From assembly GCA_977020255.1 (NCBI GenBank), contig CDROCS010000137.1, forward strand, positions 62,001-126,000: DNA of 64,000 bases, written 5' to 3'. The translations under genes and the position numbers were made by a program. The notes below the pieces were generated by a model. It saw nothing but the letters and a program-made list of their open reading frames with translations, made no database searches and was not told the origin of the DNA. The stretch comes from Obrimoposthia wandeli (taxonomy: Eukaryota). This document shows positions 18,955 to 63,994 of the stretch, piece by piece (positions within the stretch are counted from its first letter, which is position 1; the number at the start of each line of letters is the position of its first letter).

Positions 18955-20290
18955 ATTTCTTTCCATCTCTCTCCATCTCCCTCCATCTCCCTCCATCTCC
19001 CTCTGTCTCCCTCCATCCCCATCCATCTCCTTCCATCTTCCTCCATTCCTTCATCCATCTCCCTCCATCTCCCTCCATCTCCTTCCATCTCCCTCCATTC
19101 CTTCATCCATCTCCCTCCATCTCCCTCCATCTCCCTCCATCTCCCTCCATCTTCATCCATGTCCCTCCATCTCCCTCCATCTCCCTCCATCTCCCTCCAT
19201 CTCCCTCCATCTTCATCCATCTCCCTCCATCTCCCTCCATCTTCATCCATCTCCCTCCATCTTCATCCATGTCCCTCTGTCTCCCTCCATCTTCCTCCAT
19301 CTCCCTCCATCTCCCTCCATCTCCCTCTGTCTCCCTCCATCCCCATCCATCTCCTTCCATCTTCCTCCATTCCTTCATCCATCTCCCTCCATCTCCCTCC
19401 ATCTCCTTCCATCTCCTTCCATCTCCCTCCATCTCCCTCCATCTCTCTCCATCTCCCTCCATCTCCCTCCATCTCCCTCTGTCTCCCTCCATCCCCATCC
19501 ATCTCCTTCCATCTTCCTCCATTCCTTCATCCATCTCCCTCCATCTCCCTCCATCTCCTTCCATCTCCCTCCATTCCTTCATCCATCTCCCTCCATCTCC
19601 CTCCATCTCCCTCTATCTCCCTCCATCTTCCTCTACCTTCCTCTATCTTCCTCCATCTCCCTATATCTCCCTCCATCTCCCTCAATCTCCTTCTACCTTC
19701 CTCTATCTCCCTCCATCTTCCTCCATCTCTCTCTATCTCCTTCCATATCCCTCTATCTCCCTCTACCTTCCTCTATCTTCCTCCATCTCCCTCCATCTCC
19801 CTCCATCTCCCTCCATCTTCATCCATCTCCCTCCATCTCCCTCCATCTTCATCCATCTCCCTCCATCTTCATCCATGTCCCTCTGTNNNNNNNNNNNNNN
19901 NNNNNNNNNNNNNNNNNNNNNNNNNNNNNNNNNNNNNNNNNNNNNNNNNNNNNNNNNNNNNNNNNNNNNNNNNNNNNNNNNNNNNNNNNNNNNNNNNNNN
20001 NNNNNNNNNNNNNNNNNNNNNNNNNNNNNNNNNNNNNNNNNNNNNNNNNNNNNNNNNNNNNNNNNNNNNNNNNNNNNNNNNNNNNNNNNNNNNNNNNNNN
20101 NNNNNNNNNNNNNNNNNNNNNNNNNNNNNNNNNNNNNNNNNNNNNNNNNNNNNNNNNNNNNNNNNNNNNNNNNNNNNNNNNNNNNNNNNNNNNNNNNNNN
20201 NNNNNNNNNNNNNNNNNNNNNNNNNNNNNNNNNNNNNNNNNNNNNNNNNNNNNNNNNNNNNNNNNNNNNNNNNNNNNNCCCTCCATCTTT
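18955..20290. repeat. CT-rich minisatellite (unit CTCCCTCCAT) interrupted by an assembly gap
   Basis: Reverse complement of the array at 1-162; repeat sequence flanks the N run on both sides. Confidence 0.9.
19887..20278. other. Assembly gap (~390 N)
   Basis: Run of N. Confidence 0.98.
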
Positions 20291-44585: not shown

Positions 44586-45372
44586 GTTAATAAAGATTTT
44601 ATATCAACTACTACCTCTTCGATCAATCTTCTCTCAAAACCATGTATTTAAGAATATAAGATTAAAACATCAACTTATACGGCTTTTGTAGAAAATTTTT
44701 CTAACCCAGAGATTTGAGAGTGTTTGATTTAACCAAATAAACACTTTGCTAATTTATCTCCTAGAACCTCCTAAACATCGTTATATTTTCTTCTAATACC
44801 ATTCTTGGCTTTATTTCCCTCCCCTAAAACATTATATACATTAATTTCCCTTCTAAACCAGTTAAGTATCGCCAATTTCCTAAACATCTTATTCATTTCT
44901 CTTCTATGCAAAAACCTATCTTCTTAAACTTCCTAAATAGACCGTCAATTTCTCTTATAAACTTTTGAATAGCACAAATCTCATATAAATTCCATCAATT
45001 AATTTCAAACATTCTTCTTCCTTATTGGGTATATAGAAATATCATTGAATTAGGAGCTTTGATTATAATTTAGTTCAATCATCTAAGCTGCCTATAGAAG
45101 TTTGTGAGAGTTGATGACTGTATTATTGACAAAATGGATGAAATATTTCATACAGAGGAACCTAATAATTTGCTGTTTCTAGAAAAATAATAAAACATTT
45201 CATTATTTAGGAATAATAAAATTAAATCAACTTTTAAATTATAATAGCGAATCTAAAATTATTATGTAATAAGCTGTGTCATAAATGTTAGCATGGTTTT
45301 AGATTTCAAAATGTATACGATAAACGTCTTCAATTTTGTTCATTGAGTAAAGAAAGGCAATCACTTTACAAA

Positions 45373-45482
45373 ATTGTTGGGGTTTCTATATGAAACTGTC
45401 TTTCTAATATAGATCCTCTTTAGTGGAGGGCCCCAACGTGAGTTCTATAGAAGCAGGACTTGTAGATGTTTGTGGCCTACTT
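45373..45482 (+). repeat. Dispersed repeat family copy
   Basis: TTGTTGGGGTTTCTAT...GGCCCCAACGTGAGTTC...TGTGGCCTACTTAAT is shared with 1941-2045. Confidence 0.7.
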
Positions 45483-47439: not shown

Positions 47440-47890
47440 TAAGAATATCGATGTATCAAAATGTTTTTTATTAATTTCCTATTTTAAAAGAGGGGTTTTT
47501 GGAATGTTTCTCAATATTTTTTGTACCAATATATGCATTAGGATCCTTACCAATGGCAGTGAATGCTTTATGTAGTCTTACAAAAATATCAAGTATACCA
47601 TTTCTTTTTTGTATACCTGCAATATAATCCATATTCTTTTTCAAATTTAAAGCTTTCATATCAACTCCACCAACTTATCTACTTAAAACATTCCCTAATA
47701 AAAAAGGATTTCTTATTAAATTATTATTGTTTATAAAGGAGAAAACCAAGTAAAAATAAAGATAAAAAACATTTATTTACTAATTCCATCAATTATTTTC
47801 CAAATAGGAGTTACCAAACCACTAGAATCGATCTTGTAACCTTGTATCTTGATATTGATATTCCATTGAGTAGGTAGAAGGATAGAGTCT
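47440..47890 (-). pseudogene. Fragment of a second, diverged Maverick: homologues of the basic protein and of the 129-aa ORF C-terminus
   Basis: DYIAGIQKRNGILDIFVRLHKAFTAIGKDPNAYIG vs DYLRGIQ...GMLDIFVKLDKLTKAFEKDPSAYLG; QWNINIKIQGYKIDSSGLVTPIWKIIDG vs EWIISIRIQGCKIGPSGLETPIWKIIDA; same order and strand. Confidence 0.9.
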
Positions 47891-48572
47891 AGATCACTTG
47901 ACCCCGCCCTTGTGCGCACACAATGTTAAAGGATTTTACAACATAAAGGTATCACACCATAAGGGTGTCAGACCATAGAAATGTCACACCATAAAGGTAT
48001 ATGTTGACTCACAATAAGGGTGTCTTGCCACACCATAAGGGTCTGGCTCAGAAAGGTTAAGATAGGGGGAAGGTGGAAGGGTCAATTGATCTAGTCTCCA
48101 CCCTTCTTTTTGTCAACCACTAAAGGGTTGTGGTCGTCCATAATTTAAAGGGTCAGGCAGAGTTTTGATTTGAAGGTTTTAAGGTATGGTCGTGACCGTC
48201 TATGGTCAACCAACATATCTAAAGGGTCATGGTCGTCCATAGGTGAAAGGGTCGGGCTAAAACAAAATCAAGTTTAAAATATCAAAGTTTTAGTACATGG
48301 TTGGAGTCATCTTTAGAAGGTGAATTCATCCATAAAGTATGGCCGTCCATAAATCAAAGAGTCGAGCTATAGACCAAATCAAGTTGAAAATATCAAGGTT
48401 TTAGTACATGGTTGGAATCACCCTTAGAAGGTGAATTCATCCATAAAGATATGGTCGTCCATAGATGAAGGGTTAAAAAAATAGTTGGAATTTCATAGTT
48501 ATAAGTACATGGTTGTGTTTGTCAACATATTACGAGTTTAATCATGTAAAAATTTTAGGGTCGTTTACAAGG
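47890..48572. repeat. Degenerate repeat array (CACACCATAAGGG, GGTCGTCCATA motifs; ~105-bp imperfect tandem duplication at ~48235-48470)
   Basis: Direct inspection; lies between the diverged Maverick fragment and the left TSD. Confidence 0.65.
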
Positions 48573-48578
48573 TAAGGG

Positions 48579-49089
48579 AGTAGGGGGATGTGTGACTTCT
48601 GGAACAAAGACCGTGGGAAAATTTCAAGAGCGTGGGAACCCCCCCCCCCCTGAGGACAAAAATCTAGGTCAAATTTTTTGATGAGGACAAAAATCTAGGT
48701 CAAAATTTTTGAAATTTGCCCGAAATTTTTTGAAAATTTTGAAAACTTTTGAAATTTGCGCCAAAAATTTATAATATAGGTCAAAATTTTTGAAATTTGC
48801 GCGAAAATTTTTGAATTCAAATTTTTTATGACAGATGTAGGTCAAATTTCTCCCGAGTACACATGATTTTTTATTTAAAGTCATGAGGACAACTTGAGGT
48901 CACGATGAGGACAAGATGTAGGTCATGACGTCATGAGGACAATGTACTTTAAGGTCAAGTTAAGGTCATGACGTCATGAGGACAACTTAAGGTCACGGTG
49001 AAGTCAAAAAGATTCTATTTTTAGTAACATACTTTAAATCTATATCTATCTAACAAAGACAGTCACGCATCTATATTGCAAAAACCTGC
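48579..49089 (+). repeat. Left terminal inverted repeat (511 bp)
   Basis: Reverse complement of 63482-63994 except for a ~45-bp divergent patch and minor differences. Confidence 0.97.
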
Positions 49090-49190
49090 AAATTTATGTA
49101 ATCAATAGTAACATTTATTCTTATACATGTATATATATATATATGTGTGAGTGTCTAACAAAGACGTACTGCATCTATATTGCAATCTAA

Positions 49191-49571
49191 TTACAAAGTT
49201 TTTGGTCGGTTTGCTAAAAAGTTTAGTTTTGGACCAAGATAGGCACTAGGATCCTTTTCAAATGCTTTTGTAAGTTTATCTAATTTTACAAAAATATCAA
49301 GCATACCATCCCCTTTTTGTATACCATCTCCTTTTTGCACTCGTTTCTGATTTTGTATACCTCTCAAATAATCCACATTCTTTTTGTGCTTTATAGATTT
49401 TTTATCAACTCCGCCAAACCATCTACCTAAAAGATTTGCTGCCATCATATGAATACCCAAACCCTCCATGATTTTCTTTTTACTCATAGTCTTTTTACTC
49501 ATAGTCTTTTTACTCATAGTCTTTTTAACCTTAGTCTTTAATGATTTAGTAGGTTTTTTAGTCATTTTCAT
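49191..49571 (-). CDS. Small Lys-rich basic protein (KKTMS repeats, QKGDG x2); candidate DNA-condensing core protein
   Basis: The start is placed at MKMTKK (49571) because TATAAAC sits 24 nt upstream. A homologue is conserved at 47471-47700. Function is inferred from composition. Confidence 0.75.
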   Translation of the reverse strand: MKMTKKPTKSLKTKVKKTMSKKTMSKKTMSKKKIMEGLGIHMMAANLLGRWFGGVDKKSIKHKKNVDYLRGIQNQKRVQKGDGIQKGDGMLDIFVKLDKLTKAFEKDPSAYLGPKLNFLANRPKTL

Positions 49572-49656
49572 AATAAATATTAAAGTATCACTATTGTTTA
49601 TAATATAATAATAAATAATATATATAAAATAATACAAATAAAGACACAAAAATTTA

Positions 49657-50046
49657 TTAGTCAACTCTAACAGCATCAATTATTTTCCATATCGGAGTTT
49701 CCAATCCACTGGGCCCGATCTTGCATCCTTGAATTCTGATTGAGATAATCCATTCTAGCTTAGGAGGAGGTGCTTCGTATATTGTTCCATTCTCATGCTT
49801 GAAAGTGGCAGTTGATCCTTTGATTACGAATTTGTTTTCCTGAAGTGCATAGTTGATTCCGAATTGAGTTAAGAGAATATTGATTCTCTCTTTATCCACA
49901 GAAGTCAAATTTGATATTTCAAAATCAAATTTAAGCGGCTCGATGTTGACAGGAAAAATAAAATTATAGTTATGAGCTTTCTTCAAAAAGTGCATCTCAT
50001 ATCCATAATATGTATGCATAGGTTGATATAGCTTTTCGAAATTCAT
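49657..50046 (-). CDS. Conserved hypothetical Maverick protein, 129 aa
   Basis: Intact ORF; the C-terminus is conserved in the neighbouring remnant (47773-47890). Confidence 0.8.
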   Translation of the reverse strand: MNFEKLYQPMHTYYGYEMHFLKKAHNYNFIFPVNIEPLKFDFEISNLTSVDKERINILLTQFGINYALQENKFVIKGSTATFKHENGTIYEAPPPKLEWIISIRIQGCKIGPSGLETPIWKIIDAVRVD

Positions 50047-50159
50047 ATTGACAATTATAAATTGAAATATTCAATTGTTTATCCTCTAAAGCTCGATTCT
50101 AATTGGTCGATATTCTTGTTTATGAAAATCGATTAGTCTCAATTGGTTAACATTCTTGT

Positions 50160-50360
50160 TTATCGTCTAGTATTAGTCATATCCTTAAAGGGCTCACGTT
50201 CTTCGGTTACGCGCGTAGGACTTGTTATTGTTTGACTTGATGGATTAATATTTTCTCTCTGATTATTTCTATTATAATTCATATTAGAATATAAATTACT
50301 ACCGGAACCTATGTATGTACTAGCTCTACTTTCATTATTTTGATTATTTTGATTATCCAT
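50160..50360 (-). CDS. Small Asn/Ser/Thr-rich hypothetical protein (MDNQNNQNN..., 66 aa)
   Basis: ORF with TATAAAC 27 nt upstream of the ATG; no recognisable domain. Confidence 0.5.
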   Translation of the reverse strand: MDNQNNQNNESRASTYIGSGSNLYSNMNYNRNNQRENINPSSQTITSPTRVTEEREPFKDMTNTRR

Positions 50361-50397
50361 TTTCAATAAAATCATTATCAAAATATTGTTTATACTA

Positions 50398-50484
50398 AGA
50401 CAAAGACATCACATGTCATTACTTGCAAATAGTTGCAAATAGTTGTAATGTGGTCTAAAAATAGATTTTCACTTACTATATAAG
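50398..50484 (+). promoter_or_regulatory. ~70-bp repeated upstream element (copy 1) plus TATATAAG box of the IAP gene
   Basis: AGACAAAGACATCACATGTCATTACTTGCAAATAGTTGCAAATAGTTGTAATG...TGGTCTAAAAATAGATTT recurs at 52126 and 52221; TATATAAG at 50477-50484. Confidence 0.7.
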
Positions 50485-50512
50485 CTAGACAATTTCATCA
50501 TTCAATTTTGTT

Positions 50513-51514
50513 ATGACTACTAAATTTATTGCACATTATGTTTCAGAAAACGGAGAAATCCCCATTAGACGACGGCGTTTTGATAATATTTCAAGAATAA
50601 ATGAAAATATGATATATGAAGAAAGAAGATTAGAATCGTTACAAGCAAAGTTTACTGGTTTAGCCCATAAGAAAGCTTTAGCAAAAGCAGGATTTTACAA
50701 GCACAATGATTCGAAAGATAATGTAAAGTGTATTTACTGTCAGGGAGGAATATCAGGATGGGAGTACTATCTGAAACCAATGAAGCGACATCAGCTATTT
50801 TTCCCAAGATGCCCGTTTGTTTTGAAAATGAATGTTTCAAACGTACCAATAATTGATTCCAGCACCACCCAAATTGATTTTGATACAACTCCAATGGATA
50901 AAGTAGTTATTGTGCGCAATAATTATTCTAATGATATTGAAATACCTACATTATCGATTTTCGATCATGTATATATTTGGAATGATTCTTATCGATGTTG
51001 TTTCTGTCGGAAAGCAGTACCCCGACTTGACCTTATTGATACTATGCCCGAAAGAATCTTTCATACTCGAGATTGTAAAGCATCTAGTATGGGAATCAAG
51101 AACGGATGTATTGTTGAATATCATATTAGTAATGATGAAATTGATGCCCAGATGGAAACTCGTCAAATAGTTTTGCTGAAACGTGATTACAGCCATGATA
51201 GAATCAAAGCCGTTTTAGTTAATAGGTTTAAAACATTCGGTAATAAATATGATTCTATATATGAGTTTATAACGGATTTAAGGTCTTTAGAAATAAAATC
51301 TGAACCAAAACATCGGATAAATTATCTCGAGTACCTCTTACCAAATCCCGAATGTGTTGTTTGCATGAGTGATGCGATTTCCGTGGCATTTTTACCATGC
51401 GGTCACTTAAACACGTGTATTAAATGTTCAGATCGTTTTATTACATGTCCATATTGCAAGACAATTATCATTAGACGAGTAAGAAATATTAGATTTCATA
51501 GCATAGGCAATTAA
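50513..51514 (+). CDS. iap: Inhibitor of apoptosis (BIR + degenerate BIR + RING), 333 aa
   Basis: Exact BIR pattern CX2CX16HX6C preceded by AGFY; second partial CX2C..H..C; C-terminal IAP-type C3HC4 RING (CVVC...LPCGHLNTCIKC...CPYC). Confidence 0.95.
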   Translation: MTTKFIAHYVSENGEIPIRRRRFDNISRINENMIYEERRLESLQAKFTGLAHKKALAKAGFYKHNDSKDNVKCIYCQGGISGWEYYLKPMKRHQLFFPRCPFVLKMNVSNVPIIDSSTTQIDFDTTPMDKVVIVRNNYSNDIEIPTLSIFDHVYIWNDSYRCCFCRKAVPRLDLIDTMPERIFHTRDCKASSMGIKNGCIVEYHISNDEIDAQMETRQIVLLKRDYSHDRIKAVLVNRFKTFGNKYDSIYEFITDLRSLEIKSEPKHRINYLEYLLPNPECVVCMSDAISVAFLPCGHLNTCIKCSDRFITCPYCKTIIIRRVRNIRFHSIGN

Positions 51515-51577
51515 GCAAATCTAAAAATAGATGTTCAAATTGTATAAATAGAAGAAATCAGTTTATAATAATCAGAA

Positions 51578-52125
51578 ATGCTACTTCACAATATCAAATT
51601 AGTGAATATTAATTACAAGGGAATGGTTGTAAGTAACATTCAACACTTACCATTTCGGACTTCGAAGCCTCATCAGTATCGACTCAAGTGTGAAGGTTAC
51701 ACTATTATCATTTTCAAATCTGGTAATTTATATTTACATTTATATATAATTCTAATTTAGGTACATGCAGAATAATGGGTTGCAAAACAGTGCTGGATGA
51801 AAGCAGTCTTCCTTTTTATATAAAAATCGAAAGAATCCAATCAATCAGTCTCAGCAGCAATCTAGAAACATCGATAAACCTAAACAAGATGAGCAAGAGT
51901 ATGGGATCAGAAGCTGTTTACGAGCCAGAAATCTTCCCGGGACTTCGATACGTCAAATACAATCCCCTATGCGTGAACATTTTTGCTAGCGGGAAGATTA
52001 TGATACTCGGTGTTAAATCTTTAAACTATGAGTATCTGATTGAATGTATTTTGTTTAATATAGATCTTCACACTTGTGTTATTTATTTCCTAAACCAAAT
52101 AGTTTTAAAAATAGATTTCTCTTAG
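51578..52125 (+). CDS. TATA-binding-protein-like protein, ~169 aa, two exons (51578-51722, 51761-52125)
   Basis: Removing the 38-bp GT-AG intron joins IIIFKSG-TCRIMG (TBP repeat 1, LIFSSGKMVCTG) to YEPEIFPGLRY...VNIFASGKIMILG (TBP repeat 2, YEPELFPGLIY...LIFVSGKVVLTG). Confidence 0.88.
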
Positions 52126-52325
52126 AGACAAAGACATCACATGTCATTACTTGCAAATAGTTGCAAATAGTTGTAATGTCGCAAAAGTTGTAATGTGGTC
52201 TAAAAATAGATTTATCTTAGAGACAAAGACATCACATGTCATTACTTGCAAATAGTTGCAAATAGTTGTAATGTTGCAAATAGTTGTAATGTGGTCTAAA
52301 AATAGATTTTTCATGGGTTATAAAC
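52126..52325 (+). promoter_or_regulatory. Tandem copies 2 and 3 of the ~70-90-bp upstream element plus TATAAAC box
   Basis: Direct repeats at 52126-52213 and 52221-52310; TATAAAC at 52319-52325, 25 nt before ATG 52351. Confidence 0.7.
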
Positions 52326-52350
52326 AATATTTGATTTGCTTTATCATAAA

Positions 52351-52594
52351 ATGGATGAAATTATTGAATGTAAAGAGGTTCAGGATGCATTAAAAGATCT
52401 TGCTTCAGTTATTCTCAATGCTTTAATTAGGAAAAATAATCATGAGTAATATTTATATGTAGTTTATTTAAATCTTTAGGTTACGTCATCAACTACATTT
52501 ACATGAGATGTTAAGTACAATGGAAAGGTTGAATAATACTCCAATCAAATCATATGATGAAACTGATGCTCCAATGAAATCAAACCTTGTTTAA
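52351..52594 (+). CDS. Small spliced hypothetical protein, 69 aa (exons 52351-52445, 52480-52594)
   Basis: Removing the 34-bp GTAATA...TTTAG intron restores the frame (MDEIIECKEVQDALKDLASVILNALIRKNNHE-LRHQLHLHEML...); unspliced, it stops at codon 33. Not in the ORF track. Confidence 0.55.
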
Positions 52595-52627
52595 TATATA
52601 AGACTAAATTGACTCGGAATTGATAAA

Positions 52628-52891
52628 ATGGAGAAAATCGATTCAGCACCAGAAGCAACATCATCGCCAGCAACAACATCATCAGTAACATCATCACCAC
52701 CAGCAACAACAACAACAGTTATAAGAAGAGAAGAAACTATTGATGAAGTGACGATAGAAGAAGAAATTATTATAGATCCAATTATTGAAGATAAGAGACG
52801 GATAGATTTTTTTAAATGCTTTGGCTTTTATGGAACCCATAATAGCTCATGCTTCGAGTATGGAAATGAAGCACATGACCCATCTTTTTGA
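52628..52891 (+). CDS. Ser/Thr-rich and acidic hypothetical protein with a Cys-containing C-terminus, 87 aa
   Basis: ORF with TATATAAG 25 nt upstream; no recognisable domain. Confidence 0.55.
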   Translation: MEKIDSAPEATSSPATTSSVTSSPPATTTTVIRREETIDEVTIEEEIIIDPIIEDKRRIDFFKCFGFYGTHNSSCFEYGNEAHDPSF

Positions 52892-53366
52892 TAGTTTGTT
52901 TAGTGCTAGATTTACTCAACTTAATGTAGAAAAGTTAAACAAAACCGCGATGAGTGAGATTTTAGTAAATCAATTATATATTGGTAATTATAGAGATGGG
53001 TTTGATGAAACTAATCTTTTGAACTCCAATTTCACTCATGTAATCAATACATCTATACTGGATAAAATATCTTATAAGAAATTAAAATATACTTCTGTCT
53101 TTGTAAACTCAAAATTAGGAGAAACAATAATGAAGTATTATAAACAGACTAATAATATAATTAAAGAAACTATCGAAAATGGTGGTAAGATTTTAGTATG
53201 TGGTCATTATGGTAGTTTACATGCTGCTTGCATTGTTATTGCATTTTTATCTCATTCGATTGGTGTTACTGCTGCTTCGAATCTTGTTAAAGCTAAACGG
53301 ACTATTGCTGCTCCTAATGAAGCTATGCTTCATCAAATACGTATTTTTAATCGTTATCATGTGTAA
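52821..53366 (+). CDS. Dual-specificity phosphatase-like protein with degenerate active site (true start probably 52860 or 52950)
   Basis: MSEILVNQLYIGN, FTHVIN, NGGKILV and KRTIAAPN are DSP hallmarks; the HCxxGxxRS loop is replaced by CGHYGSLHA. Confidence 0.85.
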   Translation: MAFMEPIIAHASSMEMKHMTHLFDSLFSARFTQLNVEKLNKTAMSEILVNQLYIGNYRDGFDETNLLNSNFTHVINTSILDKISYKKLKYTSVFVNSKLGETIMKYYKQTNNIIKETIENGGKILVCGHYGSLHAACIVIAFLSHSIGVTAASNLVKAKRTIAAPNEAMLHQIRIFNRYHV

Positions 53367-53533
53367 ATTTTATTCGTCTTTATCTTTAATCAGTATCTTT
53401 ATTAATCAGTGTTTTTATTAATCAGTGTCTTTATTAGTCAGTGTCTTTAGTGTCTTTATTAGTCTTTATTAACCAATCAGATTTCAGGTGTATAGTATAT
53501 AAGCAGATTACTTTTTACTTCTTCATCATCATT

Positions 53534-53815
53534 ATGTCTACTCCAAACTATTTCAAGCAAGATGTTGACAAGGCGGTGAAGAGCTTCATTTCGAAGAATG
53601 TCATAGAACCAGATGTCCTGCAACTCATTGATGTCTCAAATCTACCCCTAGAGGAGCACGTAAGAAGAATGGTGCACGACAAGGCAGTCAATCTTCTCAT
53701 TCAGGGATACAATCAGAAGAAACTCGCAAACAAAGAAGAGAAAAGAAGCTTTTTCTACGAGAAGAGTTTTTTATTGTTTGTTGCTGGATGTTTCGTAATA
53801 AAATATTTTAAATAG
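53534..53815 (+). CDS. Hypothetical protein with C-terminal hydrophobic segment (MSTPNYF...FLLFVAGCFVIKYFK), 93 aa
   Basis: CCAATCAG (53473) and TATATAAG (53496) upstream place the start at 53534; candidate tail anchor. Confidence 0.7.
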   Translation: MSTPNYFKQDVDKAVKSFISKNVIEPDVLQLIDVSNLPLEEHVRRMVHDKAVNLLIQGYNQKKLANKEEKRSFFYEKSFLLFVAGCFVIKYFK

Positions 53816-53858
53816 TTTTGTCTTATAAACATTATCCCGATAATTTAATATTTTTAAT

Positions 53859-54509
53859 ATGAACTTAAAAAATAATTCAGTTTTTCAGATTGTAGGTCCT
53901 AGTGGTAGTGGGAAAACACATTTTGTATGTAAATTACTGCAAAATAATAAATACTTTAGTTTTAAGTTTAATAAAATATACTGGCATCAGGGAGGAGATG
54001 GAGAAGCTGGGTTAACCAGTAAAGAGTTTAAGAAAATCAAAAATATAAAAGTCATTAATGGATTCGATGATAATTGGTCTGAGCGATTACAACGACATGA
54101 TGTTATTGTTATTGATGATTTATATCAAGAAGCAAATAAAGAGAGTGATTTCAATAATTTATTCATTAAAATAGCACGACATCGGGAAGTAACTGTTATT
54201 TTCATCACACAAAATCTATTTCATCAAGGAGGGAACCATAGAACTCGTAATTTAAATGTACATTACCTTGTTCTCTTCAAGAATCCACGTGATCAGACGG
54301 TTGTTGATTTTGTTTCAAGACAAGCTTACCCGAATAATAGAAAGTTTTTAATTGATTCATTTCAAGATGCAACTACTATTCCTCATGGATACATTTTTAT
54401 TGATTTTACTCAAGATTGTCCCGATGACTTTAGAGTTAGAACTGATGTATTCAATCCATCGGGAATAACCCTCTATAAACAAACAAAGAAACCAGTTTTG
54501 AGAAGATGA
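53859..54509 (+). CDS. A32/FtsK-like genome-packaging ATPase
   Basis: Walker A GPSGSGKT, Walker B IVIDD, RH...IFITQNLF motif. Confidence 0.96.
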   Translation: MNLKNNSVFQIVGPSGSGKTHFVCKLLQNNKYFSFKFNKIYWHQGGDGEAGLTSKEFKKIKNIKVINGFDDNWSERLQRHDVIVIDDLYQEANKESDFNNLFIKIARHREVTVIFITQNLFHQGGNHRTRNLNVHYLVLFKNPRDQTVVDFVSRQAYPNNRKFLIDSFQDATTIPHGYIFIDFTQDCPDDFRVRTDVFNPSGITLYKQTKKPVLRR

Positions 54510-54928
54510 ATTTTAAAAAGGAAACTGTTAAACCCGAAGTTAAAAAATTGATTAAATCAGTTTTAAGTGCAAGGAAAATGGTTGCTCAAAAATCGAAAAG
54601 AACTGTTGTTAAGAAATCTAGGAGTATTGCCTATTTCAATTCTCTCATGCGTGCACCTGCTATTCGCCGCCCAGCTATTCTTAAATCATTCCCTACTTTT
54701 GTAATTGATGATTTACTTAATATGATACAGAAAATAGTTTCTGGTAAAATAATTGTCAAGGCTAACCTGAATCGGCATAAGAAACCTCTACTTGCTATGT
54801 TTCATGCCAAAACACGAATCGGTAAACGTAAGTTGCTTTATAAGCAAAGTGGTGGATTTTTAGGATTTCTCGTACCAATTATTAGCTCAATAGTTGGTGC
54901 ACTTGCTAGTAGACTAATTAACCGATGA
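54506..54928 (+). CDS. Basic Maverick virion protein with C-terminal QSGG + amphipathic helix (FLGFLVPIISSIVGALASRL)
   Basis: C-terminal GGFL..L..I motif typical of small Polinton structural proteins; ATGA overlap with the ATPase stop. Confidence 0.8.
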   Translation: MNFKKETVKPEVKKLIKSVLSARKMVAQKSKRTVVKKSRSIAYFNSLMRAPAIRRPAILKSFPTFVIDDLLNMIQKIVSGKIIVKANLNRHKKPLLAMFHAKTRIGKRKLLYKQSGGFLGFLVPIISSIVGALASRLINR

Positions 54929-54945
54929 TTATAAACATAAATTCG

Positions 54946-56443
54946 AATCAATAATATGAATTTATATATGGGATCACTTCCATCTATTCCTAAATTCAAT
55001 TTAAAAAGCAAATCTTCTTGCTGCAATGGAGAAAATATGGTTCGATCCAAGTCATCCCGTTGGTTACACAGGGGTTTCAAAATTAGCAAAAGAGTCAAAG
55101 AAGACAAAGCAGGAAACTCAAGCGTGGTTGAGAAATCAATTAGCTTACAGCTTAAACAAACCAATGAGACGTCGGTTCCCAACGAGATCATACAAGACTA
55201 GTGGACCTAATGATTTATGGCAAGCAGATTTGATGGAAATGATTCCGTATGCTAGTATTAACAACGGATATCGATATATTTTAACTTGTGTTGATGTCTT
55301 TAGCAGATTCGCGCGAGCTATTCCATTAAAGTCTAAGTCTGGTACCGATGTTTTAACCGCAATGAAGCTTTTGATTAAAGAAATAAAACCAAGAAATTTC
55401 CAAACGGATAGTGGAAAGGAGTTTTATAATACACATGTTGAAACACTATTGAAAAAACATAATATTAATCATTACTCAGTATTTTCCCAATATAAAGCCG
55501 CTTTAGTTGAACGTTTTAATCGAACATTGAGAGATCGTTTGAAAAAGTATTTCACAAAGCAGGGAAATAAGTCCAGGGTCACTGTTTTACCTCAAATAAT
55601 ACATGCATACAATCATAGTGAACACTCATCATTAGACCGAAAGAGACCCGTTGATGTTACAGATGAGAATGCTATGGAAATTTGGCAACGCCGTAATCAA
55701 TAATATGAATTTATATATGGGATCACTTCCATCTATTCCTAAATTCAATTTAAAAAGCAAATCTTCTTGCTGCAATGGAGAAAATATGGTTCGATCCAAG
55801 TCATCCCGTTGGTTACACAGGGGTTTCAAAATTAGCAAAAGAGTCAAAGAAGACAAAGCAGGAAACTCAAGCGTGGTTGAGAAATCAATTAGCTTACAGC
55901 TTAAACAAACCAATGAGACGTCGGTTCCCAACGAGATCATACAAGACTAGTGGACCTAATGATTTATGGCAAGCAGATTTGATGGAAATGATTCCGTATG
56001 CTAGTATTAACAACGGATATCGATATATTTTAACTTGTGTTGATGTCTTTAGCAGATTCGCGCGAGCTATTCCATTAAAGTCTAAGTCTGGTACCGATGT
56101 TTTAACCGCAATGAAGCTTTTGATTAAAGAAATAAAACCAAGAAATTTCCAAACGGATAGTGGAAAGGAGTTTTATAATACACATGTTGAAACACTATTG
56201 AAAAAACATAATATTAATCATTACTCAGTATTTTCCCAATATAAAGCCGCTTTAGTTGAACGTTTTAATCGAACATTGAGAGATCGTTTGAAAAAGTATT
56301 TCACAAAGCAGGGAAATAAGTCCAGGGTCACTGTTTTACCTCAAATAATACATGCATACAATCATAGTGAACACTCATCATTAGACCGAAAGAGACCCGT
56401 TGATGTTACAGATGAGAATGCTATGGAAATTTGGCAACGCCGT
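54946..56443 (+). repeat. 749-bp tandem duplication (54946-55694 / 55695-56443) of the integrase 5' region
   Basis: The copies appear identical; junction microhomology AATCAA/AACCAA. Confidence 0.95.
55026..55703 (+). pseudogene. int: Truncated duplicate of the integrase (catalytic core only, 225 aa)
   Basis: Identical to the first ~224 aa of 55775..56803; stops just after the duplication junction. Confidence 0.9.
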
Positions 56444-56803
56444 AACCAAAGTCAAGTTGCGCGGAAACCCAAGTATAAAGTTGGTGATTATGTACGTATT
56501 TCTCAAATTAGTACTATTCCTTTTATAAAGAATTTCAAAGAGAATTGGAGCGATGAAGTATTTCGTATAACTAAAATTGATAATAAACGTATGCCGGTAA
56601 TGTATTTCATTGAGGATGAAACCAATAATGTAATCACGGGTAAATTTTATCATGAGGAATTACAAGTCTTGCCTGAGAAACCGAATGTATATAGAATCCA
56701 AGAAATTTTAGAGACAAAAGGTAGAGGAAAGCATAAACAATATCATGTTAAGTGGCATGGATATACTGAACCTAGTTGGATATTAGCTTCTCAAATAGAA
56801 TGA
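55775..56803 (+). CDS. int: Retroviral-like (c-INT) DDE integrase with C-terminal chromodomain, 342 aa
   Basis: WQADL, QTDSGKEF and VERFNRTL (D,D,E); Y.I..IL...Y.VKW.GY chromodomain. Confidence 0.97.
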   Translation: MEKIWFDPSHPVGYTGVSKLAKESKKTKQETQAWLRNQLAYSLNKPMRRRFPTRSYKTSGPNDLWQADLMEMIPYASINNGYRYILTCVDVFSRFARAIPLKSKSGTDVLTAMKLLIKEIKPRNFQTDSGKEFYNTHVETLLKKHNINHYSVFSQYKAALVERFNRTLRDRLKKYFTKQGNKSRVTVLPQIIHAYNHSEHSSLDRKRPVDVTDENAMEIWQRRNQSQVARKPKYKVGDYVRISQISTIPFIKNFKENWSDEVFRITKIDNKRMPVMYFIEDETNNVITGKFYHEELQVLPEKPNVYRIQEILETKGRGKHKQYHVKWHGYTEPSWILASQIE

Positions 56804-57821
56804 ACTCAATGTATGTTGTATTACCAAGTAATGGTTCGCCATTAACTCAGCCGAATAATACTGCTAATAGTTTTAGTATTGATTATCAAAGCTCAATCAA
56901 TTTACCTGGTAGTTGGGAAGCTGCTCTTACGGAATTTTCTTTCAATTACTCTCCTCTATCTATTCAAAGTGAAACTGAGATTGAATATATTACCCAACGT
57001 GAAGCTGATAAAGTAACTGATGTGACTTTACTATTTGATAAGGGTCAAATGGATTTGGCTCGTATTAAGGCTGGCAATGATTTCACAATCTTTTTAAATA
57101 AAGAGAATCGAATTCAAATTATGGGAAAAGGGGATAATTTTGAAATAGTTTTTAATGATGAAATTGTTGCAGAACAATATGGATTTCCGCCTAACGTTGA
57201 AAAAGGAAAGCATGCAGTTTCAAAAATTATGGATAATCATGTCAAGTATCCGATAATTACATTCAAGATAAAAAACAGATTCGTTAAACGCGAGAGGAAA
57301 ATATATTCAGTTCTCAATGATTTTCTTTTTGCCGATAGCAAAAGTATGTGTAAACATTTTAAAACAGTGTTACCAAATGTATTTGAAAACTTTAAACTAG
57401 TTAATAAATTGATTCATTTCAAATTGAAATCCAATATTGATAAAATCATCATGGATAAATCATTAGCCTCAATTATCGGTTTTGATGAAAATGAATTTGA
57501 AAATAAAAATGAGGTTTTCAAAGCAAAGATTATTCCTAAAATGACTAATGCATATAATCAGATTTATATCTACACGAGTATTACCGAACCAATATTCGTA
57601 GGAGGAAGGAAACTTCCCTAATTAAAGCAATTTGGGTTCAACAGGAAAAGCACAAGTATGGTGATGTTATACATATTCCAATTGAAAATCCAATGTATAT
57701 TCCCGTGAGTTCTTCTTCTATAAACAATATTGAAGTTAATATACGTAATGATTCTGGAAGATTAATTACATTTGCTTACGGAGCTAAAACAAGTTTAACG
57801 GTTCATTTTCGTAAATTATGA
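56800..57821 (+). CDS. Minor capsid (penton-like) protein, frameshifted at CCC 57616-57618
   Basis: YVVLPSN...NT.NSF...I.L.G.WEAAL N-terminus; adding one C restores ..PLIKAI...NPMYIPV...IEVNIRNDSG..TVHFRK*, the typical C-terminus. Confidence 0.88.
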
Positions 57822-58180
57822 TTGATTCAAGTATAATCGATGCATATAGTAAACCGATGCAAGGAGGTGATTTGCCTTATTTTACCGGAAAACAGTATGG
57901 ATCAGGATGGATGAAGGTTTTTGGTCGCTTTGCTTTCCCACTACTCAAGCGACTCGAGAAATTTATTGCTAATGTTGGATCAAAATACTTGTCAAGTGAT
58001 GAGAAATTTCTTCCCACACTAAAGGAAGCAGCCTTGGATCAGGTGAATGAAATTTCACCAAGTCTAGCTGAATTTTTGAAAAAGAAAACTCAAAAGGGAA
58101 GTGGTTATAAACGTAAGAAAACATCTAAAGCATTGGGTATAAACAAACGTTTGAAAATAGGTGGAACAATTTTTAAGTAA
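57818..58180 (+). CDS. Small virion protein with MQGG/QYGSG motifs and an amphipathic helix (candidate membrane-penetration protein), 120 aa
   Basis: QYGSGWMKVFGRFAFPLLKRL motif and position between mCP and MCP are typical of Polintons; function is inference. Confidence 0.8.
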   Translation: MIDSSIIDAYSKPMQGGDLPYFTGKQYGSGWMKVFGRFAFPLLKRLEKFIANVGSKYLSSDEKFLPTLKEAALDQVNEISPSLAEFLKKKTQKGSGYKRKKTSKALGINKRLKIGGTIFK

Positions 58181-59408
58181 TGAGTTGTGCTAAAACTGAA
58201 TTGTGTATATTCGATAAACCTATACCTCAGGTTGTGGTTGATAGTGCTAGTTTTGAAGAAATATTTCCGACAAATACGGTTAATGGGACATCTTCTCCGG
58301 ATTTAGAATTCAATATTAATGGATCCAATACTCAATATCTTGATTTGAATGATAGTTTATTTCTCGTTAAATTGAAAGTTACAAAGGAAGGTGGAGGTGA
58401 TTTGGATGATGGTATGGATATCAAATCAGCTAATTACATGTTGCATACTCTTTTCAAGGATGTGATTCTCAGTCTCAATAATGTGAAAGTTGAGGGAAAT
58501 AATACTAGCTACACTCATAAAGCAATGATTGAAACATTGTTGAATTACGGTAATGATACGAAATTGATTAATCTTGATGCAATTGGGTTTGACAATGATG
58601 AAAAAGAAGAATTGCTTCGATTGCAAAGTCTAAAGTATTGTCACTTTGTGGGAGTCTCCATTTGGATTTCTTTAAGCAACCAAAGTATCTTTTACCCGGT
58701 GTAAGTGCACATATTCGAATGAAGAGAAATCCAGTAGGTTTTAGTGTTGTTTGCGCTGATACTATTAAAACCGCAATTGAGATTACGGAAGCAAAACTGC
58801 TGGTTCGAAGAGTAAAGGTGGAACCATCTGTACTTGTTGCACATCGAATGGAGTTGGAGAAGCAAAATGCATGTTATCCTATTAGAAAAACTAATCTTGT
58901 TTCTCACGCTATCCCTACGGGAGCACTATCTTATTACAAGGATCAGATTTTTGGTGATATGCAACTTCCAAACTTTGTTTTAATTGCTTTCCAAAACACT
59001 TCTACCTATGGAGGTGAGTCTAAAAATGAGGTTTCTCAATTTGGACACATGAATGTGAGTTCAATTAAACTTGCACGAAATATTGATTATCAAGAATCTT
59101 ATACGAATGACTTTGAAAACGATGATTATGTGTTTTCTTATGTGCAATCTTTAATTAGAAATCTTGGTCATTTGGATAAGGATGCTAATATTGGAATTTC
59201 AATGACTGATTTCAAGGACAAGTATACACTGTTCACATTTGTTCTCTCTCCTGATTTCGATATTAATCAAGCTCAAATACCTAAACAGGGAAATTTGAAA
59301 GTAGAAATCAAGTTTTCAAAAGCACTTGAACATCCTACTAATATTATAATCTATGGAGTATTCGATTCTGAGGTTCAAATTACCAAGGGAGGAACAGTAC
59401 TAGTATAA
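58180..59408 (+). CDS. Major capsid protein (double jelly-roll, PY family), frameshifted at A5 58601-58605
   Basis: K.EL.IF...Q, LEF.I, YLDL.DS, LF....L.LN, YxHKAxIETLLNY, LHLDFF.Q.KYLLPGV and F.LSPD motifs; adding one A gives DEKRRIASIAKSK. Confidence 0.92.
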
Positions 59409-59439
59409 ACAGAATGAAAACAATAAAGAAAATATATAA

Positions 59440-59816
59440 ATGAAGTAAGTCAGTTTGAATTTATTAATTAATATATATTCTAGTTCAGACGAGATAACAA
59501 AAGCGGAAGAAAACTACTCGGTTCGCGTTTCAATGGAGTCTACAGCCTTGATCACATCCCCTCTTTGACTCGACTAGGTGGATATGTAATCAATACACAT
59601 TCATCTAATTTGCGTGGTGAACATTGGATTGCAATACATGTTAAAGAAAATGAAATCTTTGTTTTTGACCCCTTTGGGATATATTACCCTTCTAAATTAG
59701 TATCTACAGTACTTGATTCTGGAAAGAAAGTATATTTTAGTAAGAAACATTATCAAAATGTTTTAATACAGTCATGTGGACAACTCTGTCTGCTTTGGTT
59801 AAAGCATAAACAATAG
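59440..59816 (+). CDS. Adenain-like cysteine protease with a short first intron (donor 59445)
   Basis: GEHW, FDPFG and Q..CG triad. Acceptor 59483 gives MNSDEITKA and needs a 1-nt fix at GG 59505; acceptor 59488 gives an open frame (MKRDNKSG). Confidence 0.9.
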
Positions 59817-59853
59817 ATATAAACAATATCAAATAAAATTACTGCTATAAAAA

Positions 59854-60363
59854 ATGTCTGTTTATTTTATTGATTTTGAAGCTTTTATTGATAATAATAC
59901 TGAATTTGTAATAAAAGAACTATGTATAATGGATGTGGATGCAATCTTCTATCCTAAACATTATGTTTTTAAAATGCAACCCATATGGGACATGATGAAT
60001 AGAAAATCAAGAAAAATAAATAGATATCTCATTAAGCATTACCATCAACTAAAACTAGTTGATGGTAATAGTTATTTCAAGATACAAGAAATAACTGAGG
60101 AAATAAAACGTTGTTGTGATGTATCCAAATCAATTTTCTATGTTTTGGATGAAAATAATGGAGCTAAAATAAAGACAATCAATAAATATTTTCCTGAATT
60201 TAGAGTGATAAATTACTCGAAAACATTAAAACAATTAAATCCATCAAATATCAATTGTCCATATATAAAACATGGCGAGCATTGTGCATACAAGAAATGC
60301 TTTGCAGCTAGTTTGGATTATTTAAATATTAATGAAAATTCAACTACTCACATCTGTCAGTAA
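59854..60363 (+). CDS. DEDD-like exonuclease-fold protein common in Polintons, 169 aa
   Basis: FIDFEAF...FVIKEL N-terminus and C..H.EHCA C-terminus; TATAAAC 29 nt upstream. Confidence 0.7.
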   Translation: MSVYFIDFEAFIDNNTEFVIKELCIMDVDAIFYPKHYVFKMQPIWDMMNRKSRKINRYLIKHYHQLKLVDGNSYFKIQEITEEIKRCCDVSKSIFYVLDENNGAKIKTINKYFPEFRVINYSKTLKQLNPSNINCPYIKHGEHCAYKKCFAASLDYLNINENSTTHICQ

Positions 60364-60410
60364 ACTATTCTGTTTTAAATTAATCTGGTTGGTTTAAATA
60401 ATGTATGAAT

Positions 60411-60448
60411 CTGATTGGCTTAATACTAGTTCGAAAATAGTATATAAG
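60411..60448 (+). promoter_or_regulatory. Putative polB promoter: inverted CCAAT box (CTGATTGG) and TATATAAG
   Basis: The same motif pair (CCAATCAG + TATATAAG) precedes the ORF at 53534. Confidence 0.55.
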
Positions 60449-60494
60449 CAAGCATCAATCAACAAATAATCCCCTATTATAAACGAAATTGAAA

Positions 60495-63400
60495 ATGGTA
60501 AGTTTATTGTTATTTTTCTGCTAATTTATTTATTTCTAGAATTGCAATATGAACAAAGAATTATGCTTCGAGGAGAGTCACAAGGAATGTGATAGAAAAA
60601 TGAAGAGCTACTTTGGACAGAAGTTCAACGGACAACAATTCTACGTATGTCCAGTATGTCTCTCCGCGGAGGAGATTGATTGGTCGGAGTTTGTGGTGCG
60701 TCATCGTATCCATCTTCGTCATTTCCAGCAACGTGGCAAGAAGGCCATCTTTCAGAATAGATCTGCTCATATTTCTCGGGTTGCTGGTCCAGTTGTTGCT
60801 GCTGTTCCAGTATCTGCCCAAATTTCTGCTGCTGTTACTACCCTAGTTGCTGCTGCTGTTCCAGTATCTACCCCAATTGCTGCCGCTCCAGTTACTAGTC
60901 CAGTTGCTTCACCAATGGTTCCAGTTATGCCTCCTCCAGTTGGTATGATCCCCGCGCCGTTACCAGCATCTACCCGCAAGAGAAGTGGTATGCCCACTTC
61001 AGGTAGCTCTGTTGCGAAGTTTTCCAGGGTTGATGCTGTTAAGCGTAAGACTAGTCTTCGGGGCACGATTGAGACATTGTCATTAGATGTTTCTAATGAC
61101 AATCTCATCGATTTACAAGTTCCTGTATCCCTTTTGACTAGCTTAAGGGACACAGTCAGCAAGTTTGCAACTTGCAAGGTTCAATTCGGGGTGCGTGTTG
61201 AATTTTCCAATATTGGAGAAACACGCGCTTGGAATTTTTCCAATAGAGGGCTCCCCATAGATGAGGGGTTTATAGATGTGGGAGTAGATGGGATCAACAA
61301 GAAGATTGAGAATTATTCTCAAAGTAGCAGTAATTGGGTAGTGAACCGCTTCCTGGAGATTTCGTTTGTTGTGACTAAAACAACAACAATGAACTATATC
61401 CAGGGAAGTAGTTATATACCTACTCCATCTGAGTTAGCACTCTCACATTGCGTGATCAATGTGCAGAACTCAAACACTTTCTGCTTCCTTTACAGTATCT
61501 TATCTGTACTTTTCCGCGAAGTATTTCGCTCTAATCCTCATCGGGTTAATCAATATGATGCCTTTTTGAGTCAATTAGTTTTTGATGAGAATGAGATGCC
61601 GATGCGTCTATGTAATATACCGCGATTTGAGAGAAAGAATCCATCTCTCTCAATCAACGTATTTACATTCAATAGGTTCTCTAATGTGCAAACAGATGGG
61701 GATATCTTCAAAAATCCCTATGTGGATGTCATTTACAGGACCACAAACCCGGACGCTAAACCAATCAATCTTCTCCTTTTAGAAAATAATGATAATTTTC
61801 ATTATGTCGGTATTCCTAAACTCAATAGGCTGCTTAATTATAGGAACAAAGGTGTATCTAATTGCATTCGGTGTACTTGGTGCCATAAATGTCTTCATGG
61901 ATTCCGTAGTCCGATAAGTTACGCCAAACACGTTCCGCTCTGTAGGATGAATTTAGATCATACAACACTTTATTCAATGCCTACAGAGAAGCATATTGAG
62001 TTTAAGGACTTTTCAAAAACGATTTATCCGCCTTTTGCTGTTTACGCGGACTTTGAGGCTGTGCTACCACCACATGGAATCCACCATCAGATTCAACTTC
62101 CAATCTCGGCCGGTATGCTCATGTCTCCCGTTGCAGCCACGAGAGGGTATACACATGATTACTCGGTCTTTACCGGAGAATCTTGTGTGGTATCCTTTGC
62201 AGAAATTAGAGTACTTGGCGAAAGAGGTTGTACTCCCATGGTACAAGAAGCATGCGATCGAGGTGATGCGACAACTCACACAGGAACAGGTATCGAGTTT
62301 CAATGCAGCAAGAATCTGTTACCTATGTAAGAAGAAACTCACAAACAAAGTTCGAGATCACGATCACATGACTGGCGAATACCTGGGAGCTGCACATGCA
62401 AAATGCAACTTATCAATGAGAATTAATCGATCTTTTCCCGTCATTTTTCATAATCTGATGGGTTATGACATGCACCACATATTGAAGCACGCACTGTGTA
62501 AGTTTCCTGACTGGAATGTATCTGTTATACCTCAATCAACAGAGAAATTCCAGGCTATGATGGTGTATATTGGAGGAGTCTGTATACGTTTCATCGATTC
62601 ACTTCAATTTTTGAACAGCAGCTTAGAAAAACTTGTGGAAAACCTGGGTGTGACTCCTCTTACACATTCGGTCTTCCCGCAACATCTGGTGAGCGCCAAG
62701 GGAATCTTCCCATACGATATGGCAGTATCAGAGACTGCTCTTCGCGCAATCACCAGCTTACCGCCAAAGTGGGATGAGAAGATCAAGCCAGCACAATATG
62801 AAATGGCGAAGATGGTCTGGACTCAGAGCGGCTGCTCATCGCTCTGGGACTATATGCTGGTCTATATGAAGATGGACGTCTACCTTCTAGCAGACGTGTT
62901 TACAGCATTCCGGACCAAGGCCATTGCTGACGATGGATTGGAGCCACTCAATTTCTTCTCCATCCCTGGTTTGTATTTTTATAATTTTTTCTAATTTTAG
63001 ACACTAACACACATATATACATGTATAAGAATAAATGTTACTATTGATTGCATAAAGATGCAAGTATTTGCAATATAGATGCGTGACTGTCTTTGTTAGA
63101 TAGATGATTTTCAAAGTAATAATTTTCACAATGATTTTCACAATGATTTTATTTCCAGGACTGACTTTCGCGAGTGCTTTCAAATCCCTGCTTCGTCCGG
63201 CTTCTTCTTCTGCTCCCGTTGTGCGAGTCGAGCTAATACAGGATCCAGAAATGTACCGACTCTTCCGGTCTGGGATTCGCGGGGGTATGACATTTGTTAA
63301 TGAACACTGCGTTGACGCCATCAATGGTACAGAACTTTTGTACATTGATGTAAATAATTTGTACGGGTGGGCTATGTCCCAGTTTTTACCTTGTGGTAAC

Positions 63401-63508
63401 TTTTCCTGGGTGACTGATCGGTTAGAGTTGGGGAATATTATTTCCAGCTTAAAATCAGCAGATTTATCCTGTAGTCGCTTCGCAGGTTTTTGCAATATAG
63501 ATGCGTGA
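60495..63508 (+). pseudogene. polB: Protein-primed DNA polymerase B with 2 introns (60498-60539; 62969-63158), a frameshift at 62196 and C-terminal truncation
   Basis: GSSYIP, VINVQN, Exo I VYADFE, endonuclease-VII-like RDHDHMTGEYLGAAH..CN, Exo II HNLMGYD, Exo III YMKMDV and Pol A YIDVNNLYG are present. Motifs KxxxNSxYG and YxDTDS are absent because the frame runs into the right TIR at 63482. Confidence 0.95.
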
Positions 63509-63994
63509 CTGTCTTTGTTAGATAGATATAGATTTAAAGTATGTTACTAAAAATAGAATCTTTTTGACTTCACCGTGACCTTAAGTTGTCCTCATGACGT
63601 CATGACCTTAACTTGACCTTAAAGTACATTGTCCTCATGACGTCATGACCTACATCTTGTCCTCATCGTGACCTCAAGTTGTCCTCATGACTTTAAATAA
63701 AAAATCATGTGTACTCGGGAGAAATTTGACCTACATCTGTCATAAAAAATTTGAATTCAAAAATTTTCGCGCAAATTTCAAAAATTTTGACCTATATTAT
63801 AAATTTTTTGCGTAAATTTTAAAAAATTTGACCTACATTTCAAATTTTTCGCGCAAATTTCAAAAATTTTGACCTAGATTTTTGTCCTCATCAAAAAATT
63901 TGACCTAGATTTTTTTTCCTCAGGGGGGGGGGGGTTCCCACGCTCTTGAAATTTTCCCACGGTCTTTGTTCCAGAAGTCACACATCCCCCTACT
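63482..63994 (-). repeat. Right terminal inverted repeat (513 bp) followed by TSD TAAGGG
   Basis: Reverse complement of 48579-49089. Confidence 0.97.

Follow-up and report, generated by a model that had tools for sequence, protein, structure and literature searches.

A polymerase-truncated Maverick of Obrimoposthia wandeli from a young, roughly 2,000-copy family, with likely spliceosomal introns in its genes

Results

A recent Maverick insertion with a truncated polymerase gene

The 64,000-nt stretch of Obrimoposthia wandeli DNA analyzed here (the window; contig CDROCS010000137.1, positions 62,001 to 126,000) contains at 48579-63994 a true, recently inserted endogenous Maverick of the Polinton/adintovirus type. 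Its family is young and numbers about 2,000 copies. The window copy is end-to-end but not intact, its protein-primed DNA polymerase gene (polB) being cut short. It is probably a polymerase-truncated member of this family that was copied in trans and inserted with a 6-nt duplication, and whose genes carry likely spliceosomal introns. The likely introns in Maverick core genes are unexpected; the element is otherwise of a known kind.

The element begins with AGTAGGGGGATG at 48579 and displays AGTAG at each terminus, and its two terminal inverted repeats (TIRs, 514 and 516 nt) are 96.5% identical. TAAGGG stands on both sides as an exact 6-bp target-site duplication (TSD), which is not a product of chance because a paralogous empty site (L086) has the identical flanks with one TAAGGG only. 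The termini, TIRs and TSD that an earlier note on this DNA had claimed are thereby confirmed, and its reading as a recent endogenous Maverick is supported. The element inserted into the terminal repeat of an older, second-family Maverick; this older element ends at 47869, and its polB remnant lies to the right.

48573..48578, strand not applicable: left TSD TAAGGG, read from the sequence; present once at the empty site L086
63995..64000, strand not applicable: right TSD TAAGGG, read from the sequence
48579..49092, + strand: left TIR, 514 nt, with AGTAG terminus and internal subrepeats (self-comparison)
63479..63994, - strand: right TIR, 516 nt, joined directly to the cut polB (self-comparison)
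47869..48572, + strand: terminal repeat of the older second-family Maverick, the insertion target (comparison with genome copies)
60495..63508, + strand: protein-primed polB, 3'-truncated at ~63483; PF03175 in two pieces, frame broken near 62190-62200
54946..56443, + strand: 749-nt tandem duplication private to the window copy (self-comparison)

The element had been described as end-to-end; both ends and the TSD are in place, but polB is cut, frames are broken and 749 nt are duplicated, so that the copy is polymerase-defective. When compared with the uninterrupted 1,206-aa polB of the second family, the window polB can be aligned to about residue 850 and then gives way to the right TIR; the last ~360 codons, including motif B and the GDTDS motif, are missing. 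Broken frames affect the dual-specificity phosphatase, minor capsid protein (mCP), major capsid protein (MCP), protease and polB genes, four of them in addition to the truncated polB. The duplicated 749 nt are integrase sequence, and the duplication junction was found once in the genome. The morphogenesis genes, earlier reported as all present, were indeed found (the mCP as a likely gene, by position and synteny), but the MCP, mCP and protease frames are broken.

It is very improbable that the window copy is an intact, active endogenous virus whose breaks are assembly errors. The exact TSD speaks for this reading, as do the frame breaks, which are scattered among copies and often lie in homopolymers, and the many sister copies with open genes (MCP 20/39, mCP 10/25, integrase 23/42, second protease exon 30/38, polB exon 6/19; the ATPase, at 41/42, gives a biased count because copies were picked by ATPase). 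For polB, however, this explanation is largely refuted: the truncation recurs base-identically at 63 places with different flanks, as an assembly error would not, and the missing part holds two polymerase motifs.

The family and its two derivatives

The earlier note had proposed a copy-number check; once run, it gave ~2,000 copies, a family size that the note had overlooked together with the polB defect and the likely core-gene introns. An ATPase search of the genome (1.35 Gb, 6,912 contigs) returned at least 150 matches at 98-100%. Forty-two copies were compared, 40 drawn from the ATPase matches and 2 from a terminus search, a sample enriched for the window's close kin. Of these, 13 span polB in full, 5 have the cut seen in the window and 9 are without both polB and the exonuclease-like gene; 4 carry a different polB allele (55-77% protein identity), and 11 represent different deletions, rearrangements or contig ends. 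Each copy type has its own terminal sequence. Type D copies (L061/L062, L065/L066, L089/L090) combine the same capsid module with a different polB allele, and their TIRs of 1.3-1.4 kb include the polB end, so that the 3' part of polB is also present at the left end.

Exact-pattern counts across the genome gave 2,034 protease donor sites, 1,903 exonuclease starts, 1,503 uncut polB sequences, 63 polB cut junctions (two of them 422 nt apart) and 48 polB-less junctions, with 0 matches for the reversed-pattern controls. The family would occupy ~30 Mb, or 2% of the assembly, if most copies are near full length, a figure that haplotype duplicates may inflate. A precedent for such a load is one coral genome, for which 1,676 regions and a share of ~7.8% are reported (PMC11131425).

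Divergence is 0.33-0.61% for the cut copies, 0.12-0.22% for the polB-less copies and 0.5-1.2% for the complete ones. A 6-bp TSD was found in 26 of 40 sister copies, as well as in 2 of 2 in a second set, and all 25 target duplications compared are different. Cut copies carry 6-nt duplications of their own (C5, C1824, C450, C1778, C3056) and so represent separate insertions. The cut junction is base-identical in 6 of the 21 sequences that reach this point, the remaining 15 running on into polB. At a 10-nt microhomology located 12 nt inside the exonuclease-like gene, the polB-less type changes over to an inverted copy of the left arm; its inverted ends thus measure ~4.8-5.2 kb and contain the SSB, IAP and TBP genes (described below) in duplicate. 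Both derivatives keep the integrase and capsid genes.

We propose that a single ancestral deletion joined mid-polB to the right TIR. Because both origins (the TIRs) stayed, the cut genome could still be replicated by a helper polymerase: the complete polB of sister elements would copy it by protein-primed strand displacement, a predicted SSB (a protein that binds single-stranded DNA) would coat the displaced strand, and the family integrase would re-insert the product ~60 times, each time with a 6-nt duplication. In the polB-less type, the right arm may have been exchanged for an inverted left arm by a template switch at the 10-nt microhomology during the same replication. An unlikely alternative is that cut and polB-less copies spread without a helper polymerase, through integrase cut-and-paste with host repair or through host duplication. 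Every derivative does retain the integrase gene and both TIRs, and non-autonomous DNA transposons spread in this way. Yet the distinct TSDs exclude host segmental duplication, the derivatives stay near full length (14.6-16 kb) and keep the capsid module whole, and their copy-back layout suggests a replication intermediate.

The second family (L023-L034; G000 C777, C242, C477, C981) comprises elements of 11.7-12.5 kb with an uninterrupted polB (~1,210 aa) and a TBP gene. Its polB lies in the opposite orientation, its protease intron is the same, and at least 91 polB matches were counted among the matches listed.

Intron-like inserts in core and accessory genes

Five AT-rich inserts with GT-AG borders interrupt the TBP-like gene, a small open reading frame (ORF), the protease gene and, twice, polB.

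51578..52125, + strand: TBP-like gene, two exons (Pfam TBP)
51723-51760, + strand: TBP intron, 38 nt, GT-AG, phase 1
52351..52593, + strand: small two-exon ORF
52446-52479, + strand: candidate intron of the small ORF, 34 nt, the weakest of the five
59440..59813, + strand: adenain-type maturation protease; weak Peptidase_C5 match (PF00770), frame broken early in exon 2
59445-59483, + strand: protease intron, 39 nt, GT-AG, phase 2, after a 5-nt first exon
60498-60539, + strand: polB 5' candidate intron, 42 nt
62969-63158, + strand: polB internal candidate intron, 190 nt, with stops and a frame change

The inserts were sought in 43 sequences, each denominator counting those with both flanks. GT-AG is kept in 30/30 sequences for TBP, 40/40 for the small ORF, 31/35 for the protease, 24/24 for the polB 5' insert and 20/20 for the polB internal insert; in the four protease exceptions the anchor is shifted by 4 nt, with GT following. 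The polB internal insert varies from 190 to 497 nt among copies and contains a copy of sub-terminal sequence. The second-family polB and TBP are continuous at the polB-internal and TBP intron positions, respectively.

The protease intron has the widest distribution. It follows ATG(A/G)A in 4 second-family loci and 1 third-family locus, as well as in all 6 close metagenomic relatives whose sequence extends to the gene (L104, L107 (by eye), L109, L114, L118 and L119, of which L114 and L118 are near-identical). Across these lineages the introns measure 37-50 nt and have dissimilar interiors; with position conserved and sequence divergent across the clade, the intron looks old. Six distant relatives have an uninterrupted protease start. 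Among the 34 closest metagenomic loci that were examined, 11 carry TBP; the independent locus L101 has an insert at the window's intron position, and the other 10 have none.

An ATPase tree of 61 rows, from which short, stop-containing and duplicate rows were excluded, was rooted by midpoint only. One 21-row group (95/83), itself nested in a 25-row group (99/97), takes in all 4 protease-intron rows and 7 TBP rows; the 4 intron-less rows lie outside. The window ATPase sits in a clade of sequences without named members, and an ATPase scan of IMG/VR found no relative. The conserved protease intron and the TBP-like and predicted SSB genes mark this clade.

The protease, polB and TBP-like inserts are likely spliceosomal introns. 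The genes would probably be read by host RNA polymerase II and then spliced; since the unspliced protease frame stops after two codons in the window copy, host splicing would be needed for capsid maturation. It is rather improbable that the inserts are instead untranslated leaders, neutral insertions or promoter elements, with the proteins starting at other codons. This alternative draws on the fact that splicing is read from DNA, on the in-frame ATG behind the polB 5' insert, owing to which that insert is not needed as an intron, and on the candidate intron of the 52351 ORF, the weakest of the five. Against it, the polB internal insert, with its stops and frame change, lies mid-gene in ~1,500 copies while homologs are continuous, the protease insert stays at a single position in elements whose proteins are no more than 46-62% alike, and no alternative start codon precedes the conserved part of the protease. 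Joints at the intron positions were absent among the matches listed from four contig sets of one sample, a result that says nothing on splicing.

Core genes

A Pfam profile search of the window ORFs gave matches to BIR, RING, TBP, DSPc, Pox_A32, rve and DNA_pol_B_2. In addition to polB and the protease, the core region contains the following.

53859..54509, + strand: A32-type packaging ATPase, open frame (Pfam PF04665, over the cut-off)
54506..54928, + strand: basic protein of core type, with a weak match to adenovirus pX (E=0.006)
55775..56803, + strand: rve integrase with a weak chromodomain, open (Pfam PF00665, E=1.6e-13)
56800..57821, + strand: likely mCP (penton), from position and synteny; premature stop at 57619-57621
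57818..58180, + strand: conserved 120-aa ORF ahead of the capsid gene, PZ-like position (ORF list, conservation)
58180..59408, + strand: double-jelly-roll MCP, from the fold of a relative; frame broken near 58640-58710
59854..60363, + strand: exonuclease-like ORF, 169 aa, with invariant Asp, Glu and Cys

The MCP had no sequence match in PDB or Pfam. A model of the full-length L101 relative, 52% identical to the window pieces, matched the double-jelly-roll capsids of PBCV-1, SGIV, mavirus and Sputnik in PDB (E 1e-13 to 1e-17), and its best match in a viral library was a Cotesia bracovirus-borne protein at 22% identity. The mCP gene had no Pfam match and was assigned from position and conservation. 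Its middle (56970-57375) occurs in the family as two alleles, ~47% alike in protein, between conserved ends, which suggests a swapped surface domain. The protease matched PF00770 just below the cut-off (E=8e-4).

Near its N-terminus polB has OTU-like Cys and His motifs, conserved without exception in the 4 sequences aligned; with no OTU profile match, these motifs may mark an OTU domain. A TP-vOTU layout of polB has been described (10.1101/2024.03.18.585575). The exonuclease-like ORF is conserved across the clade, its Asp, Glu and Cys being invariant in 17 of 17 relatives, and had no Pfam or PDB profile match. Matches listed for it in the Atlas include arthropod-rich unnamed clusters (0.96-0.97) and Maelstrom (0.87, 160 of 256 features in common), with no PF13017 profile match; the likeness to Maelstrom may serve as a lead only.

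The left-arm accessory block

The stretch from the left TIR to the ATPase also carries the TBP-like gene and the small ORF listed above.

49191..49676, - strand: basic ORF, true start probably further in (ORF list; no Pfam match)
49657..50046, - strand: predicted OB-fold SSB of T7 gp2.5/Enc34 type, 129 aa (structure model)
50513..51514, + strand: IAP with a BIR and a C-terminal RING (Pfam), plus a further BIR-like Cys/His pattern recognized by eye
52628..53366, + strand: dual-specificity pseudophosphatase with a Ser/Thr-rich N-terminus (Pfam DSPc); frame broken near 52810-52830
53534..53815, + strand: 93-aa ORF with a short hydrophobic C-terminus (ORF list)

This block had been interpreted as an unusually rich set of host-modulation genes. 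The IAP, TBP and pseudophosphatase stand by Pfam and motif, but one ORF is a predicted SSB, and the block is less unusual than supposed, given that IAP, TBP and left-arm cargo have precedents (see Discussion). The ORF at 49657-50046 had nothing in Pfam, the Atlas or a word-indexed homolog search and was detected by profile and fold only: it has 109 relatives, and the model (pLDDT 92.8), compared with 48,161 chains, ranked phage and ASFV SSBs (Enc34 SSB, DUF2815, T7 gp2.5 and ASFV CP312R) as its top four (Z 7.1-7.6, root-mean-square deviation 2.7-3.9 over 103-125 residues; rank 5, Z 5.4). Foldseek placed the same chains first, though at E 0.13-0.4. The protein is thus predicted to fold as a T7 gp2.5-type SSB with putative DNA binding, and part of the supposed host-modulation block is likely replication machinery.

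Active phosphatases have the consensus HCxxGxxR. The window gene reads CGHYGSLH, in which Gly replaces the catalytic Cys and His replaces the Arg; this upholds the pseudophosphatase of the earlier note. The same form occurs in every family-type sequence listed by a motif scan, and the relative L107 retains the active motif. A tail-anchored ORF, also proposed, is not confirmed, its 'tail anchor' being only an 11-residue hydrophobic stretch.

An intergenic repeat of 80-95 nt lies ahead of IAP (50389-50469) and after TBP (52106-52312); copies without IAP and TBP may have lost both genes between these repeats. In one copy, L065 (C1057), TBP is divergent and has 39 nt inserted in frame where the window has its intron; the phosphatase is divergent as well (46%).

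Genomic surroundings

Nested older Mavericks surround the insertion. Part of these nested elements (also L021 and L022) is the segment 47519-47868, a remnant that resembles the left ORFs of the element at 74-79%, and further Maverick fragments, including an ATPase 88% identical, lie within 20 kb to the right. Of 25 copies sampled, 4 sit within another Maverick. Maverick-like sequence flanks 8 of the 25, on both sides in 4, vs 1 of 23 control tiles; the control covers the window only, and no insertion preference is claimed. Window positions 1-47500 are host DNA rich in long simple tandem repeats, with one N run (19887-20278); small remnants of polB lie near 3600-3800 and 45183-45375.

Discussion

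Several points weigh against our interpretation. Trans-complementation and template switching are deduced from the anatomy of the elements only, and the copy counts may be raised by uncollapsed haplotypes and omit variants. Of 55 short indels (1-2 nt), 28 lie in homopolymer runs, so the frameshifts may be assembly errors or real, and the two are not distinguishable for the small breaks. Splicing and expression are read from DNA sequence alone, and the constancy of splice sites among 99%-identical copies is weak by itself. The SSB match stays below Z 8, with no Foldseek match at E<=0.001.

In the vertebrate Mavericks of Barreat and Katzourakis (2021), as far as the consulted text describes them, intact elements are without introns and TIRs measure 46-1,447 bp (PMC8097293). 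The window element resembles them in its pPolB, rve integrase, ATPase, protease, major and likely minor capsid genes, TIRs, 6-bp TSD and AGT-type terminus, in accessory regions and in a size within 13-25 kb. It differs in the intron-like inserts in core genes, in having all core genes on one strand, in one sub-lineage with ~5-kb TIRs and in two amplified polymerase-defective sub-lineages.

Adintoviruses carry IAP homologs, and TBP is reported in non-animal MELD viruses (Starrett et al. 2021, PMC8502044; preprint 10.1101/697771). Shared with adintoviruses are a PolB of pfam03175 type whose N-terminus has a conserved Cys/His pair resembling that of an OTU domain, the integrase, adenain, hexon/penton-type genes, a pX-like protein and IAP (PMC8502044); their main text names no splicing, phosphatase or exonuclease (PMC8502044, 10.1101/697771). 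None of the named adintoviruses came close to the element in the comparisons made, the best structural match, that Cotesia bracovirus-borne protein, being 22% identical.

Nematode Mavericks (Widen et al., 10.1101/2022.07.12.499685) likewise have 2-5 kb of variable cargo beside the left TIR, with intron-containing genes, and modular recombination; their core genes are called intronless in the text consulted, whereas here the protease and polB themselves are interrupted. Maverick-like elements of dinoflagellates that bear introners are also integrated and contain spliceosomal introns; those introners are recent, mobile and found in protists, unlike the position-conserved, sequence-divergent protease intron (PMC11957031). 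Group I introns are described in cryptophyte PLVs (Polinton-like viruses; PMC12220804), and module swapping and tandem integration have been described as well (10.64898/2026.10.13.758929). In the literature searched, no animal Maverick with spliceosomal core-gene introns, copy-back forms or an SSB was found; subscription papers, Repbase and supplements may hold such cases.

Defective interfering virus genomes are of deletion and copy-back types, keep both ends and stay near unit length. The two derivatives resemble them in a deletion that keeps both ends and in a copy-back with long inverted ends at a microhomology; they differ in being integrated germ-line copies, with interference and packaging putative.

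A wider and more doubtful possibility is that the genome preserves a snapshot of a replicating virus population, belonging to an unnamed, intron-bearing clade of animal polintoviruses with an ancient clade-wide intron. It would comprise ~1,500 helpers and packageable defective genomes, with swapped alleles, its own SSB and TBP and an anti-silencing Maelstrom-like nuclease. If so, deletion and copy-back genomes would have been re-integrated dozens of times, penton and polB alleles would have been swapped, and the Maelstrom-like nuclease would act against host small-RNA silencing.

The window copy alone is otherwise ordinary and defective. The amplified derivatives without polymerase, joined at exact junctions, would be direct signs in the genome that trans-complementation and template switching took place. 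Maverick replication has been a matter of inference; according to the text consulted of the 2021 vertebrate survey, Maverick particles were still unobserved (PMC8097293), and a young family of ~2,000 copies is a good place to seek free genomes and particles. The core-gene introns, likely spliceosomal, would link the element's late genes to nuclear splicing, and screens that require intronless ORFs would miss active clades or misjudge them as dead.

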